Positions 3,751 to 54,560 of a DNA stretch of 64,000 bases are shown one piece after another. Each line of letters starts with the position of its first letter. The first letter of the stretch is position 1. The notes below the pieces were generated by a model. The model was not told where the DNA came from. It ran no database searches and was given only the letters and a program-made list of their open reading frames with translations. A program made the translations under genes and the position numbers. Location: the NCBI GenBank assembly GCA_000146465.1, contig CP001950.1; one strand, 5' to 3'.

Positions 3751-3840
3751 TATTTCCAGAACAAATTTATTATTTTTAATTGGAAAATATAGAAATGAAC
3801 GTTTATGAATATCACTTTAATTGTTGATTTGATATCGAAT

Positions 3841-3854
3841 TTCCATTAATGGAA
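3841..3854. promoter_or_regulatory. Perfect 14-nt palindrome TTCCATTAATGGAA in the divergent promoter between genes 3061..3750(-) and 3937..4716(+)
   Basis: Read directly: ttccattaatggaa is self-complementary. It sits mid-way in the 186-nt divergent intergenic region. Confidence 0.3.
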
Positions 3855-3936
3855 AATTGGTTGTTAATAAAATGTAGTTTTCCGCTATTAAGAAACAAAA
3901 GAGTAAAATTATATAAGTTCCCAAACCCCTATTAGT

Positions 3937-4716
3937 ATGGAAAAGACTTCAACATTAAATCTAGAATTTCAACTATTCAATCTCATGGCAAAAAGTCAAT
4001 CCATTGAAGTGCTTATTGTGTTTGGAGTAATTTTTGGAAATATGGTGTTCAATAACATGAAAATGGAAAGCTTATCTTTCCATCTTTTTGGAGTGGTTAC
4101 AGTTGTACTTCTCACTGCCTACTTACTGGCAATTATAGGATCCACCGAGTTTTCTGAAAACGACGATAATACCATCTTTAAATCTATGGCTATATGCTCG
4201 ATGGTAGTTACTTCGATCATTGCCGTAATTCAATCAGTTTGTTCTTTAATGGATCTTCGGAAGGATAGAGCAAAACTTTTTTACTCGGAAAGGGGAGAAA
4301 GGTTAATAATAGGAGGATACGCTGCTATCATTTCAATATTATTTCTGCTGATTCAGATATCAAAGATGGTGAGTATGAAAAAAATTAAGAAAAGTGTCTT
4401 TGTAAGTGTCTGCATCATGATGGTAGCATCTGTGTTCTATTTCCTCCTCTCTGAGGAAATCGATCAAGAACAAATCTTGTCTTTGATTATAGGTCTTGCT
4501 TTGATAGTTGGAATAATTGTGCTGATAAATATTGGAGGATCAAAAGAAATAGATATGAAAGAGAAAGGTACTCTACCTTATGTGATGTCTTCTATAATCG
4601 TTTTCTTTATTACTTCTGCACTAGGTGCAAAAGTGGTGGGAGACAAAGTTAAGCTAGTGGAAAAATTAGCTTCGGTCTTTACAGTTATTGATAAATGTAT
4701 ACTGACCAAAAAATAA
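3937..4716 (+). CDS. Hypothetical multi-pass membrane protein
   Basis: 259 aa and hydrophobic throughout. ATG confirmed. CCCAAACCCC motif 10 nt upstream. Confidence 0.45.
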   Translation: MEKTSTLNLEFQLFNLMAKSQSIEVLIVFGVIFGNMVFNNMKMESLSFHLFGVVTVVLLTAYLLAIIGSTEFSENDDNTIFKSMAICSMVVTSIIAVIQSVCSLMDLRKDRAKLFYSERGERLIIGGYAAIISILFLLIQISKMVSMKKIKKSVFVSVCIMMVASVFYFLLSEEIDQEQILSLIIGLALIVGIIVLINIGGSKEIDMKEKGTLPYVMSSIIVFFITSALGAKVVGDKVKLVEKLASVFTVIDKCILTKK

Positions 4717-4795
4717 GATATTAAAAAAGACATCTTGCTATCTAAAATGCTTCAATTGTTGAACAATTTTCAAGGATTTGAGAGGAAAGATGGTT

Positions 4796-6091
4796 TTAAT
4801 CCCTATGGGAGAAGAGTTTGATGTCTTTCTGATTGGTGTTTCTCCTAAACCCCATATTTTTTAAAACATAGGGAACATAAAACACAAGAAAAAGATATGC
4901 AATGCACAACCCATGTGCTAGGTAGTTTGGAATATTCTTCGGACTGAAAAAATGCTTGTTTATAAATACAAGAAGGTTGGACCAAACTAATATAAACAGT
5001 AAATACTTACTTGTGAAGCGGTGCATCTTGAGTTCTTCAATCCTAAAAGCCTTATTAAATATTCCAAAGGTAATTCCCTGTGTGGTGTGAAGAAACATTA
5101 TTATCATAGCAAAAGAAAGGTTATGTATTCTGCGGCAGGGCACGGAATATGTACGAGTCATCAGAAATATGGTAAAAAAAAGTAAATTGTAGAACATGAT
5201 GATATTTGTGTTCTTTCTTTTGAATATGGCTTTTGATATGTCGCTTGCCATCAAAAACATCCCCATTTGAGGCAGAAGGAATGTAATTCCTTCAATATTT
5301 GCAGTTATCAAGTTTGATCTAGTGGAATTGTATATTACCTCTTCTAATCCAAAAAACTTCAAGAAGATCTCATGGAATAGACACATAGCAAATCCCACTA
5401 AGAAGTTTGCATATGTGTCTATAAACAAAGAGGCCAAGTTTAAGATTCCAAGCATGAAAAAGAAATTCAAATGGACTCCAAACTCTGCATCTTTGACATC
5501 GAGCTTAAGTATCACTTTGGACAAGTATCTTAAGGCTCCAAAAAAGAAGGAAGACAATATGTTCTTGATTTTCCTTTGCTTACTTGCTTTTACCGAAAAG
5601 AATCCTGCATTGTACACGAAGGAGCCTACACCTATATCCATGAGCTTGAGTCCATAATCCATGCTTTTCCCTAACTTTCTTCCGTCGTAGAAAGAAAAAT
5701 CAGATGCAAATATAGTAATGGCAACACTGGTAATGATAAGAGAGCGAGTTCTGTCTATTGCAATTGATGTGTTTAGGTCTTTTTCCTGAAACACTGAGGA
5801 GGAGATTTGTTTATACTGAGATGGAGCATAGCTTTTCCATGGCCATACAGATTTTCTCTGTTTCCACTCTAGAAACATCGTGAATAAAAGGTATGCAATA
5901 AGCATAAAGGAAAATCCGGCATAAATTAGGCCTGAGTACCCAATAAAAACAACCACAAAGTATAATGGAATTGCGGAAAAGACAAATTCTAAAAATGCAG
6001 ACCTTGGCAGCATTAAATAATATACCAATATGGATAGCTGTGTTATGCTTGTGGCTGCAAATAGCTCAACTTCACTAAGAGTTTTCGTCAT
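4796..6091 (-). CDS. GWT1: GPI-anchor inositol acyltransferase GWT1/PIG-W family
   Basis: 431-aa multi-TM protein with the family-typical motif AEFGVHLNFFFMLG (compare EYGVHWNFFFTL in Gwt1/PIG-W). ATG start confirmed, with a stop two codons upstream. Confidence 0.65.
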   Translation of the reverse strand: MTKTLSEVELFAATSITQLSILVYYLMLPRSAFLEFVFSAIPLYFVVVFIGYSGLIYAGFSFMLIAYLLFTMFLEWKQRKSVWPWKSYAPSQYKQISSSVFQEKDLNTSIAIDRTRSLIITSVAITIFASDFSFYDGRKLGKSMDYGLKLMDIGVGSFVYNAGFFSVKASKQRKIKNILSSFFFGALRYLSKVILKLDVKDAEFGVHLNFFFMLGILNLASLFIDTYANFLVGFAMCLFHEIFLKFFGLEEVIYNSTRSNLITANIEGITFLLPQMGMFLMASDISKAIFKRKNTNIIMFYNLLFFTIFLMTRTYSVPCRRIHNLSFAMIIMFLHTTQGITFGIFNKAFRIEELKMHRFTSKYLLFILVWSNLLVFINKHFFSPKNIPNYLAHGLCIAYLFLVFYVPYVLKNMGFRRNTNQKDIKLFSHRD

Positions 6092-50870: not shown

Positions 50871-51060
50871 TTAATAGATTTTCAACTTCTTTGATCTCCA
50901 GTGTCTTCTTGCCTTGTTGTACTCCCCCTTGTGCTCCTTCATCATTCTCTTCCATGCAGGAATCTCTCTGTTCCTCTTCAAGGCTCTCATGAGCCTTGTC
51001 TTCACCAAAGCAGTCTTTCTTGATCCCTAGAAATTAACCCGAGTCAAATCGCCTTACCAT
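50871..51060 (-). CDS. RPL39: Ribosomal protein L39e, two exons (exon1 = ATG only, 51058..51060; intron 51027..51057; exon2 50871..51026); not in the ORF track
   Basis: Minus strand ATG|GTAAGGCGATTTGACTCGGGTTAATTTCTAG|GGATCA... Spliced, it translates to [52 protein letters not shown] (52 aa). This aligns end to end with eukaryotic L39e [51 protein letters not shown]. Confidence 0.75.
51027..51057 (-). other. 31-nt spliceosomal intron directly after the start codon (GTAAGG ... TTAATTTCTAG)
   Basis: See the RPL39 entry. Shares the 5' GTAAG and the 3' TAATTT-Y-N-AG architecture with the Sec61 intron. Confidence 0.7.
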
Positions 51061-51127: not shown

Positions 51128-52258
51128 CTATTTTTTCATCTGCTCTCTCTTTTTGCTATTTTCCCGCATTGCATTGTAAAATGTGCAGAGTTTCTCGATT
51201 GTTAGGCTGTCCTTGAGGCTTTCCAATATACTGCAAACAACTCTTATGTTGTTGGGTGTGTCTTTATCTTCTCTGATCCTATACAATTTCCACCCACCCT
51301 TCCTCAGTACAAACTCATCAAGATCCCAGTAATATCCGTCGTTGTCGTACAGAAACTCTCCTATTTTTCCATCTACTTCCTCGTCTTCACAAAAAAAATG
51401 GCCAAACACAACATCCTTTCCTCTCTTTCCACTGCACACCAGATCGTATACATGGCCAAACTCCTTGGCCTTTGTAATCTTAAAATCTATTGTGTTCAGA
51501 AACGTAGGCTTCCACTTGAGAATTACACCTCTTTTCCCTACCGAGTAAGGCTCATCTGTAGGAGTGAATATTAAGCCGTCATTTCCATGCTTCAGGTCCG
51601 GGATCTTCTTGTACACCTCCCAGAAACCATAGCTCTTCATCATCTGTTTAACATAGAAATGTATACTGATACATCCAGGCTCCTGGCCCTCAGCCCCAAT
51701 TGGAATTCTCTTCGGCTCAAACCCATCCTCGTCCTCTTTTTTTAAGGCTTTGGTCTTTTCGACACTTCCCTTCATTCTATCCACAAACATTTGTGCGTAT
51801 CCAAGCCTTTTATACAAGTTCTTAAGTATCTGGGGAGCGTCTTCATATATCAAGCAATCAAATATGGCGTAAGTGGTGACTGTGCCATCTTCCAGAAAGA
51901 TCTCTCCATCTATCAAGACAGTCGAGGAAAAGGGAAAGTTCATGTCCAATTCGTAGAAGTCGTTTTTTCTATCGTAAAAGTATCCTTTGGATATGCCCAT
52001 CTTTTCTGTAACAAGCAGCAAAGCTCTGATTCCGTCGGACTTCTCGCACACAAGGAAGTCCTTGCTCAACAAAAGATCAATGTTGTCCAGTGTTAGAGAC
52101 ACTGGATGGCATCCTGGAAACCTTTCTCTTTTCTTGGCCCCTGCTATGCAAAGCTTCTGGTATATGCCTATTCTGAGGGCCTCTGCCTCCTCGGACGGAA
52201 CTTTGTTCCCTAGATGTAAGAGCTCCATGACCGATTCAGGACTCCGACAAAACTGCAT
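51128..52258 (-). CDS. CEG1: mRNA capping enzyme, guanylyltransferase (stand-alone fungal/Ceg1 type)
   Basis: Nucleotidyl-transferase KxDG motif CEKSDGIR, and an N-terminus aligning with Ceg1 (FPGCHPVSL). Track start 52276 is GTG; the first ATG (MQFCRSPES) is at about 52258. Confidence 0.85.
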   Translation of the reverse strand: MQFCRSPESVMELLHLGNKVPSEEAEALRIGIYQKLCIAGAKKRERFPGCHPVSLTLDNIDLLLSKDFLVCEKSDGIRALLLVTEKMGISKGYFYDRKNDFYELDMNFPFSSTVLIDGEIFLEDGTVTTYAIFDCLIYEDAPQILKNLYKRLGYAQMFVDRMKGSVEKTKALKKEDEDGFEPKRIPIGAEGQEPGCISIHFYVKQMMKSYGFWEVYKKIPDLKHGNDGLIFTPTDEPYSVGKRGVILKWKPTFLNTIDFKITKAKEFGHVYDLVCSGKRGKDVVFGHFFCEDEEVDGKIGEFLYDNDGYYWDLDEFVLRKGGWKLYRIREDKDTPNNIRVVCSILESLKDSLTIEKLCTFYNAMRENSKKREQMKK

Positions 52259-52280
52259 TTTCCATAGCCCATCCACAATG

Positions 52281-52285
52281 AAAAA
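52281..52285 (-). terminator. T5 run (RNA polymerase III terminator) directly after the 5S gene 3' end
   Basis: Plus-strand aaaaa at 52281-85 gives TTTTT following ...GGGTGCTGTAATC on the minus strand. Confidence 0.5.
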
Positions 52286-52403
52286 GATTACAGCACCCGG
52301 GATTCCCGAGTGGTCTCCCGCCTCAGTACTATCCGGGCTCGCACAGGCTTAACTGCGGAGATCTGACGAGTTCCGGTGCTTTTCTGTGGATATGGCCGTA
52401 ATC
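52286..52403 (-). rRNA. 5S ribosomal RNA gene (about 118 nt)
   Basis: Minus strand GATTACGGCCATATCCACAGAAAAGCACCGGAACTCGTCAGATCTCCGCAGTTAAGCCTGTGCGAGCCCGGATAGTACTGAGGCGGGAGACCACTCGGGAATCCCGGGTGCTGTAATC. It matches eukaryotic 5S (ACGGCCATA..., box A AGTTAAGC, box C GGGAGACC...GGGAATCCCGGGTG). 5' GATTACGGC pairs with 3' GCTGTAATC (helix I). A local GC-rich island in AT-rich surroundings. Confidence 0.85.
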
Positions 52404-52493
52404 AGTCATAAATCCTTTCGACTATAAAAACAGTCCCAAAACTCCAAGCCAAAACAGAACCATCTTTTAATTAACTACACCTGCCCTCCAAAC

Positions 52494-54560
52494 TCATTCC
52501 TTCTCCCTAAGCCTTATATACTCCAGCACCTCAGACCCGCTCAAAATCCTCTTTTCGTTCAAAGTCTTTATCCTGGAAAACACTTCGAAATCTCTATCCC
52601 GGATCTTCTTCAAGACTCCTGTCTCCTCGCCATCGTTGTCCTCCTCGTGTGTTTTGACCTCGGCAAAACCTCTGGTCGCTGTAAAGCTAAACAGCTCGTT
52701 TATACATGACTTGTTGAAGAATCTACTTAGCCCAGGGTTACTCAAGACCTTCTTCCCAAGTAGATCTTTAAATATCTGCTTTTGATAAACCTTCTCTTCA
52801 ATTGTATCCTTGCAAATAAACCTATATATTTCCACACCTTTTCTCTGTCCATATCTCCATGCCCTCTCCTTGGCTTGTGTGTCTGTCGATGGATTCCAGT
52901 CCGGGTCATATATAACAATTCGAGACGCTCCAGTAAGATTTAGTCCAAGGCCTCCTACCTTGGTTGTCAAAAGAAACATGAATATGCTATCATCCTTGTT
53001 GAATCTATCCACAAGCGAAGACCGACTCGACGTCGATGTTCTACCATCCATTCTTAAGTATGCGTACTTTTCAACACACTTCTCTATTATATCTAGCATC
53101 CTTATTGTCTGCGAAAACACCAGTACTTTGTTCCCCTCACTCTTCCATTTCTTGAGAAGATCCATCAGAATCTTTATCTTACACGAGGAGCTCACAAGCC
53201 CATACTGGCTCTCTTCTTTCTTCAAAAGCCCCAAGGTCTCCTCGTTATTTTTTTCGCCAGATGCTTCTTCAGAAAGGTCTTCAGAACCGTCTTCCTTTCT
53301 GGGAATAAACAGTCTTGGATGATTGCATACCTTCCGAAGCATGGAAATCCCACTCAGAAGGTTCGCCTTTCCAATCAGAACCTTCATTATGTGTTTTGAC
53401 TCGAGAATCCTGTTGTAGAGTTCAATTTGGATTGGTGTCAACGTGCAGAATATTATTTTGTCTTCCTTGGAAGGAAGCTTATGCGAAATCTGCGACTTTG
53501 TTCTTCTTAGTATATACGGCTCTATCAATGACCGGAGCATCAAACTGTGTCTATAAGCCTTTTCAACCTGGAGATTGCTAGCACTCTTGTACCCTCCTCT
53601 ACGTATTATCTCCTCAAACTCCTCATGGAAAGAGGTGTGCGACCCCAGAAGCCCCGGATTGACAAAGTCAAACATAGACCATAGCTCCCCAAGGTTATTC
53701 TGGATGGGCGTTCCAGAAAGAACAAAGCGACTCCGAGACCTTACTTTCTTCACTGAAAGTGTGATCTGCGCATTTCTGTTCTTTATCTTGTGCCCCTCAT
53801 CTAGGACCAAAGTATCCCATAAAAGGTCCTTTGCCCTTGCCTTGAACTTCTCATACGACATCAAATACACTCCTCTGCAGTCCTCGGCTGGGAATCCAAA
53901 GAAAACTCTTACAAACGGATAAAATCTTTTCCATTCCGCCATCCATTGCGAGACTATTGTGGCTGGACACAGTATTAGTGCCTTTTCGATGGATTTGTTG
54001 TGGAATAGAACTGCTAAAAACACAATCATTTGGATCGTCTTCCCAAGCCCCATATCATCTGCAAGAACTCCACCTTTCTCTCTCTTATACAGCCCCAGCA
54101 TCCATGCCACCCCATCCCGCTGATATTCAAAAAGCGAGTTCCAAAGGAAATCTGGAATCTCAAATCCCTCGCATATACTACTTTCCTTTCTTAAATTCTC
54201 CTGGAACTCATTCTTCATAATTCCCATGTGATTGCAGTACTTCTCAATCGACTTCTCACACCTTTCGTTGAAGACTTCAATGTCCTTGTCATCTTCCATC
54301 CCAGACCATTCGAAGTCGATATTCCTCTTCTCTTCTACCTCCTCTTTTCTACTGTCCTTCTTGCACATAATCGATTTGTCTGCTGCAAGCCTGCTTTTAA
54401 CTTCCTCTATCTCTCTCTCCAAGTCCTTAACCTTCCCCATATCTCCTTTACCTTTGTGTGCCTCTATTTTCTTCTTTAGCTCATCGATCTTGGAAGATGC
54501 CGCCCTCTCCAAGTACTTTTCAACAAACGACTTCTCATAGTCTTCGGCTTTACAGTCCAT
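52494..54560 (-). CDS. SNF2-family DNA-dependent ATPase, ERCC6/Rad26-like
   Basis: DDMGLGKT, ILCPATIVSQWMAEWKRFYP (compare ERCC6 IVCPTTVMHQW), LDEGHKIKNRNAQ, and helicase-C VIYDPDWNPSTDTQAKERAWRYGQ. ATG confirmed. Confidence 0.8.
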   Translation of the reverse strand: MDCKAEDYEKSFVEKYLERAASSKIDELKKKIEAHKGKGDMGKVKDLEREIEEVKSRLAADKSIMCKKDSRKEEVEEKRNIDFEWSGMEDDKDIEVFNERCEKSIEKYCNHMGIMKNEFQENLRKESSICEGFEIPDFLWNSLFEYQRDGVAWMLGLYKREKGGVLADDMGLGKTIQMIVFLAVLFHNKSIEKALILCPATIVSQWMAEWKRFYPFVRVFFGFPAEDCRGVYLMSYEKFKARAKDLLWDTLVLDEGHKIKNRNAQITLSVKKVRSRSRFVLSGTPIQNNLGELWSMFDFVNPGLLGSHTSFHEEFEEIIRRGGYKSASNLQVEKAYRHSLMLRSLIEPYILRRTKSQISHKLPSKEDKIIFCTLTPIQIELYNRILESKHIMKVLIGKANLLSGISMLRKVCNHPRLFIPRKEDGSEDLSEEASGEKNNEETLGLLKKEESQYGLVSSSCKIKILMDLLKKWKSEGNKVLVFSQTIRMLDIIEKCVEKYAYLRMDGRTSTSSRSSLVDRFNKDDSIFMFLLTTKVGGLGLNLTGASRIVIYDPDWNPSTDTQAKERAWRYGQRKGVEIYRFICKDTIEEKVYQKQIFKDLLGKKVLSNPGLSRFFNKSCINELFSFTATRGFAEVKTHEEDNDGEETGVLKKIRDRDFEVFSRIKTLNEKRILSGSEVLEYIRLREKE

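Follow-up and report, generated by a model that had tools for sequence, protein, structure and literature searches.

Three 5S rRNA genes have been counted in Encephalitozoon intestinalis (PMC4355639 Table 1), and the same number is given for all Encephalitozoon species and for Ordospora colligata (PMC4313915 Table 1). The intergenic regions of E. intestinalis have a mean length of 115 bp (PMC4355639), and overlapping or multigene transcription has been described in compacted microsporidian genomes (Williams et al. 2005 and Corradi et al. 2008, as cited in PMC3629993; PMC2803860). According to RACE mapping, the 5' UTRs of E. cuniculi are shorter than 7 nt, and a CCC- or GGG-like motif stands close before the start codon, itself preceded by an A/T-rich stretch or an AAATTT-like element; the same species uses poly(A) signals of the AAUAAA type and shows a start-codon (Kozak) bias towards G or A at position +4 and A at +5 (PMC2803860). 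For the non-coding RNAs of microsporidia, a TATA-directed recruitment of TFIIIB and Pol III has been proposed, and the C-box of the 5S genes could not be characterised (PMC5499648).

The locus studied here is part of a 64-kb stretch of DNA (the window) from E. intestinalis ATCC 50506. As proposed in the first-pass annotation, the gene order read in the window has a 5S rRNA gene directly upstream of the gene for the mRNA guanylyltransferase Ceg1, both on the minus strand. The next gene upstream encodes an SNF2-family helicase, whose orthologues carry the Pfam domains SNF2-rel_dom, ResIII and Helicase_C. The stop codon of SNF2 and the start codon of Ceg1 are separated by 265 nt, made up of 90 nt, the 119-nt 5S gene and a spacer of 56 nt. 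The features of the locus, in the direction of transcription, are the following:

52494..54560, minus strand: coding sequence of the SNF2-family helicase (688 aa), an open reading frame with the stop codon TGA at 52496-52494; the gene upstream of 5S
52466..52472, minus strand: AATTAAA, probable poly(A) signal of SNF2, 21 nt past its stop codon
52422..52430, minus strand: TATA-like box TTTTTATAG, probable Pol III (TFIIIB) promoter element, at -27 to -19 from the 5S start
52285..52403, minus strand: 5S rRNA gene, 119 nt (Rfam RF00001)
52281..52285, minus strand: run of five T (T5), Pol III terminator, read from the sequence; its first T is the last 5S base aligned to the model
52263..52272, minus strand: two out-of-frame upstream ATGs specific to E. 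intestinalis (52272-52270 and 52265-52263), opening uORFs of 20 and 9 codons
52248..52260, minus strand: AT-rich element AAATGnnnTTTTG, probable core-promoter element of Ceg1, at -32 to -20 from the true ATG; it includes the ATG at 52258-52256
52239..52241, minus strand: CCC-like motif, a TCC within GTCCTGAAT, 10-12 nt upstream of the true ATG
51128..52228, minus strand: coding sequence of the Ceg1 mRNA guanylyltransferase (366 aa), start codon ATG at 52228-52226, with 100% identity to the annotated protein P0001

As evidenced by a covariance-model search, the 5S gene matches RF00001 over model positions 1-120 of 120 (window positions 52403..52285, minus strand) with 97.6 bits and an E-value of 5e-20, the gathering score of the family being 38. 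The canonical 5S rRNA that had been placed at 52286-52403 (118 nt) on the minus strand is borne out by this full-length match, with its span one base off. It is the sole Rfam hit in the window; beyond it, Rfam at gathering threshold and ARAGORN revealed no other RNA gene in the 64-kb window or in a 21-kb locus of the T2T assembly, and no tRNA gene was found in the window by ARAGORN. The description of this 5S gene as a dispersed microsporidian copy that is not linked to rDNA was likewise correct. It sits between protein-coding genes and almost certainly belongs to the three 5S genes already counted for E. intestinalis.

A full-length 5S gene between the SNF2 and Ceg1 orthologues was found in six genomes with scores of 92-104 bits, and also in the T2T assembly of E. 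intestinalis. The distances from the 5S end to the Ceg1 ATG are:

E. intestinalis (window and T2T assembly): 56 nt
E. cuniculi: 56 nt
E. hellem: 59 nt
E. romaleae: 58 nt
O. colligata: 211 nt
O. pajunii: 237 nt

The 5S sequences are 89-97% identical between species, compared with 29-71% for their flanks (45 nt upstream and 24 nt downstream). An RNAalifold analysis of the six orthologues showed that the three-way-junction secondary structure is kept, with 38 pairs, one of which has a compensatory double change and five of which have one-sided changes between G-C and G-U or between A-U and G-U, while only three contain any broken cell. Note that covariation in this alignment is weak because the sequences are so nearly identical. 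Since the identity of the gene exceeds that of its flanks and the substitutions keep the predicted pairs, the comparison argues that this copy is a functional gene under purifying selection.

Rfam detected no 5S gene at five more distant syntenic loci, and a sixth such locus, with some 140 nt of sequence before the ATG, was too short to be informative. In three of the five loci without 5S, SNF2 or another coding sequence lies only 71, 38 or 8 nt upstream of Ceg1. From its presence in both genera and its absence from the five more distant loci, we infer that 5S and Ceg1 were already linked in the ancestor shared by Encephalitozoon and Ordospora, and the shared position agrees with the near-complete synteny reported for the two genera (PMC4313915). 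Two observations on the wider comparison may be added. The Ordospora spacers (L007, 3790-4000; L006, 3764-4000) are four times longer than those of Encephalitozoon and contain blocks that are conserved between both species, such as GTATTAGGCA and CACATTGTTG.TGTGCATATAGCCC, and Rfam at gathering threshold gave no match in them. In addition, a microsporidian contig of 60,963 nt from Logan SRR21023573 encodes a Ceg1 that is 63% identical to that of E. intestinalis, as close as the Ordospora proteins. It shares the local gene order without 5S, with a gap of only 71 nt between SNF2 and Ceg1 and with an inverted DNA polymerase gene, and it could help to date the insertion or loss of the 5S gene.

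The length of the spacer depends on the start codon of Ceg1. The open reading frame matches the annotated E. intestinalis protein P0001 (mRNA capping enzyme alpha subunit, 366 aa) with 100% identity; P0001 carries Pfam PF01331 and PF03919, a nucleotidyltransferase domain and a C-terminal OB domain (precomputed assignments). Its KxDG motif reads EKSDGIR, and K79, D81 and G82 are nearly invariant in the homologue alignment. The first-pass annotation had placed the first ATG of Ceg1 about 28 nt from the 5S gene, at 52258. This codon, 26 nt past the last 5S base, is itself preceded by the out-of-frame ATGs at 52272 and 52265, and it is not the start of Ceg1, as the true ATG lies 30 nt further on, at 52228, which yields the spacer of 56 nt. 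The annotated protein has 366 residues, not 376, and in an alignment of 13 homologues nine begin exactly at the residues MEL (Encephalitozoon, Ordospora, Nosema granulosis and other relatives), those of Vairimorpha necatrix and Glugoides start within three columns of this position, and the exceptions are a truncated annotation from E. romaleae and one over-extended Logan call. The N-terminus is conserved across genera as MEL..LG.K. At the DNA level, all four Encephalitozoon species keep the ATG at -30; E. cuniculi and E. hellem, however, have it out of frame, and in E. romaleae a stop follows after nine codons. The annotation of 366 residues, the conserved MEL terminus and the lack of in-frame conservation at -30 together identify ATG 52228 as the true start on comparative grounds. 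The sequence ATG GAG at 52228 also fits the bias at +4 and +5, which ATG CAG at 52258 does not.

As a candidate start, ATG 52258 was rejected: E. intestinalis is the only species in which it is in frame and open, it is missing from the annotated protein, and the 10-residue extension that it would add has no counterpart in any other homologue.

The truncated annotation of E. romaleae SJ-2008 (CP003526.1; P0006, 288 aa) starts at an internal methionine and does not include the catalytic KxDG lysine motif. The locus itself (3767-4867 of the fetched stretch) has an intact open reading frame of 366 aa from ATG 3767 (MELFHLG...) that contains neither frameshift nor stop codon, and P0006 is a mis-called start rather than a truncated gene.

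The 5S gene appears to be equipped with signals of its own. Its 3' end reads ...GTAATC TTTTT C, that is ...GTAATCTTTTTC, and the TTTTT terminator that had been noted at this end is present at 52285-52281. A run of four or five T is found at the same place in the 5S genes of all six species, the run being T5 in E. intestinalis and E. romaleae but one T shorter in E. cuniculi and E. hellem, and in every species further T4 runs follow within 40 nt of this primary run. By yeast standards, T4-T5 is a short Pol III terminator, and it is therefore plausible that Pol III reads through it into the spacer to some degree. The TTTT of AAATGnnnTTTTG (52252-52249) may act as a back-up terminator. Upstream of the gene, a TATA-like box is located at -27 to -19 in six of six species from two genera, as TTTTTATAG or TTTTTGTAG in Encephalitozoon and as TATAAATA or AATAAATG in Ordospora, and is probably a Pol III promoter element. 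The 5S and tRNA genes of fission yeast also require upstream TATA elements. With respect to the hypothesis of TATA-dependent Pol III transcription (PMC5499648), the locus shares the conserved TATA-like box, and our six-species comparison slightly favours the published view that the Pol III genes of microsporidia depend on such a box; the segment GGGAGACCACUCGGGAA, at Rfam model positions of about 80-100, is consensus-like here. As this segment fits the family consensus well, an internal control region may still be present in the gene. At the other side of the 90-nt gap, the ATTAAA that follows the SNF2 stop codon is invariant in all four Encephalitozoon species and AATAAA takes the equivalent site in Ordospora, so that the AATTAAA of E. 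intestinalis is probably the poly(A) signal of the SNF2 mRNA.

The first-pass annotation had further held that the Pol II promoter and 5' UTR of Ceg1 must overlap the 5S gene. This requirement falls away in view of the mapped 5' UTRs of E. cuniculi, shorter than 7 nt and with the promoter signals beside the ATG (PMC2803860), and of the 56-nt spacer itself, in which both a CCC-like motif and, upstream of it, a conserved AT-rich element occur where they would be expected; moreover, one to three upstream ATGs would penalise an mRNA that started in or before 5S. The AAATG and TTTTG blocks of AAATGnnnTTTTG are invariant in the four Encephalitozoon species, and after TTTTG the sequence GATCC[T/C] aligns in all four at about -17 to -10, with an additional GGG in E. 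cuniculi and E. hellem. A motif of the CCC type precedes the MEL ATG in every lineage, as a perfect CCC at most 6 nt upstream in all eight other lineages examined and in the degenerate form TCC in E. intestinalis. The Ceg1 spacer thus resembles the minimal microsporidian Pol II promoter (PMC2803860) in its succession of AAATG..TTTTG, GATCC[T/C] and ATG GAG, an A/T-rich stretch followed by a CCC-like motif near the ATG, but differs from it in that the E. intestinalis motif is degenerate and stands 10-12 nt away from the ATG rather than immediately adjoining it. Because the spacer holds this CCC-like motif after a conserved AT-rich element, Ceg1 most likely has a minimal promoter of its own that need not overlap 5S. 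In terms of translatability, the upstream ATGs argue that productive Ceg1 mRNAs start downstream of 52256.

The neighbouring RPL39 gene (50871-51060, minus strand; a 52-aa protein with a 31-nt intron, 51057-51027, GTAAGG...TTTCTAG, right after the ATG) starts 67 nt past the stop codon of Ceg1 and shows a textbook promoter with an AAATTT-like stretch and CCC, AAAATTTGAGCCCCGACGAA followed directly by the ATG.

We hence regard it as highly probable that 5S forms a small Pol III unit of its own within a typical compact intergenic region and that Ceg1 is transcribed independently by Pol II. Past the SNF2 stop codon, the SNF2 transcript would end with the help of AATTAAA, and the order would continue with a TATA-like box at about -25, the 119-nt 5S gene, the T5 run, the 56-nt spacer and the Ceg1 ATG. 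The promoter of Ceg1 would most likely lie wholly within the spacer and consist of AAATG..TTTTG at about -30 to -20 and the CCC-like motif at about -12, with a transcription start no more than about 27 nt away from the ATG, and probably only a few nucleotides away. The closeness of the two genes would then be a side effect of genome compaction that was passed down from the ancestor shared by Encephalitozoon and Ordospora, and not a specialised device for co-expression. Note that a Pol II pre-initiation complex at a start near 52235 would physically abut the 5S terminator, and that steric or chromatin interplay between both units may result.

The tight placement had also been called unusual, a view that the surrounding genome does not support. 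Same-strand spacers without an RNA gene measure 51-129 nt in the 21-kb neighbourhood in E. intestinalis, and the 5S-Ceg1 spacers of the Encephalitozoon species (56, 56, 59 and 58 nt) are within this range. In other microsporidia, Ceg1 starts 8, 38 or 71 nt after the upstream coding sequence, and with cases such as N. granulosis, where its start lies 8 nt past the SNF2 stop codon, an overlap of the Ceg1 promoter with the upstream gene is, judging from such distances, commonplace in the phylum. The only other junction of a Pol III and a Pol II gene found for comparison is in V. necatrix (CP142728.1), in which a tRNA-Met (CAT; L010, 754-824, minus strand) with a subsequent T7 run ends 22 nt before a same-strand ACCCCCA|ATG (731), tighter than the junction of 5S and Ceg1. 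The spacing of 5S and Ceg1 is normal for an extremely compact genome.

An alternative to separate units is that Ceg1 mRNAs start in or upstream of 5S, either through read-through from SNF2 or from an overlapping promoter, and include 5S in their 5' UTR. With a spacer of only 56 nt this has some appeal, as E. cuniculi is known to make multi-gene transcripts and to show transcription overrun (PMC2803860) and transcripts of the spore stage, according to work cited in PMC3629993, often initiate in upstream genes. In each Encephalitozoon species, however, such an mRNA would bear between one and three upstream ATGs, and in Ordospora four to five. AT-rich and CCC-like signals are present in the spacer itself, the 5' UTRs of the intracellular stage are below 7 nt (PMC2803860), an AATTAAA signal stands between SNF2 and 5S, and Ordospora keeps the gene order with a spacer of 211-237 nt, so that tightness is not required. 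RNA-seq of poly(A)-selected RNA from intracellular E. cuniculi speaks indirectly against it as well: among 45 genes that received fewer than 20 reads, 42 are tRNA, 5S rRNA or U2 genes (PMC3629993), and for this reason abundant polyadenylated transcripts across 5S genes are disfavoured at the intracellular stage. In spores, whose transcripts can have long 5' extensions according to work cited in PMC3629993, long transcripts spanning this 5S gene may occur as part of a genome-wide phenomenon that is already known. A chimeric transcript of 5S and Ceg1 made by Pol III is unlikely to serve as a functional mRNA because it would be uncapped and contain upstream ATGs. On balance we consider it improbable that Ceg1 is expressed from mRNAs that include 5S.

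A second alternative would couple 5S to the promoter of Ceg1, through leaky termination at the T4-T5 run that extends to the downstream TTTT or through a complex of the TFIIIB type that keeps the promoter free of nucleosomes. If this were true, 5S transcription would modulate the output of Ceg1 and link the supply of capping enzyme to ribosome production, the spacing of 56-59 nt in four species would be a constraint and not an accident, and the locus would constitute a compact natural system for the interference of Pol III and Pol II. The primary terminator is indeed only T4 or T5 and is followed in each species, within 40 nt, by more T4 runs, and in the four Encephalitozoon species the spacer is held at 56-59 nt with 23 of 59 aligned columns invariant. 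Conservation of both length and sequence is nevertheless general in the intergenic regions of Encephalitozoon (PMC4355639), the 5S genes of Ordospora are 211-237 nt away, and five related lineages have Ceg1 without an upstream 5S gene. A functional coupling is thus very improbable. Finally, the chance that a decaying pseudogene or a fortuitous match accounts for the 5S-like sequence is negligible, and this reading is effectively refuted by the full-length model match (E = 5e-20), the 89-97% identity across two genera as opposed to 29-71% in the flanks, the maintained paired positions and the conservation of both the upstream TATA-like box and the terminator.

With independent transcription of 5S and Ceg1 as the preferred reading, the locus matters little beyond annotation hygiene. 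Its analysis confirms the correct start codon of Ceg1, and it illustrates that a Pol III gene fits into a 265-nt gap between two Pol II genes with spacers of normal size (90 nt and 56 nt). A literature search for Pol III genes adjoining Pol II genes in microsporidia revealed nothing specific, and nothing on the junction of 5S and Ceg1. The 5S feature is real, ordinary and already known, and the junction is an expected consequence of compaction. Compared to the three dispersed 5S genes of Encephalitozoon and O. colligata, this copy is of the same kind, a single-copy gene between protein-coding genes that is unlinked to the subtelomeric SSU-LSU rDNA; the genome reports (PMC4355639, PMC4313915) give the 5S count only and do not describe the neighbours of this copy or its distance of 56 nt to Ceg1. 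The reports of overlapping transcription concern the same genomes and the same cause, the crowding of neighbouring genes' regulatory signals in intergenic regions of about 100 bp, but they describe Pol II genes that run into other Pol II genes, whereas the upstream neighbour of Ceg1 is a Pol III gene with a terminator of its own.
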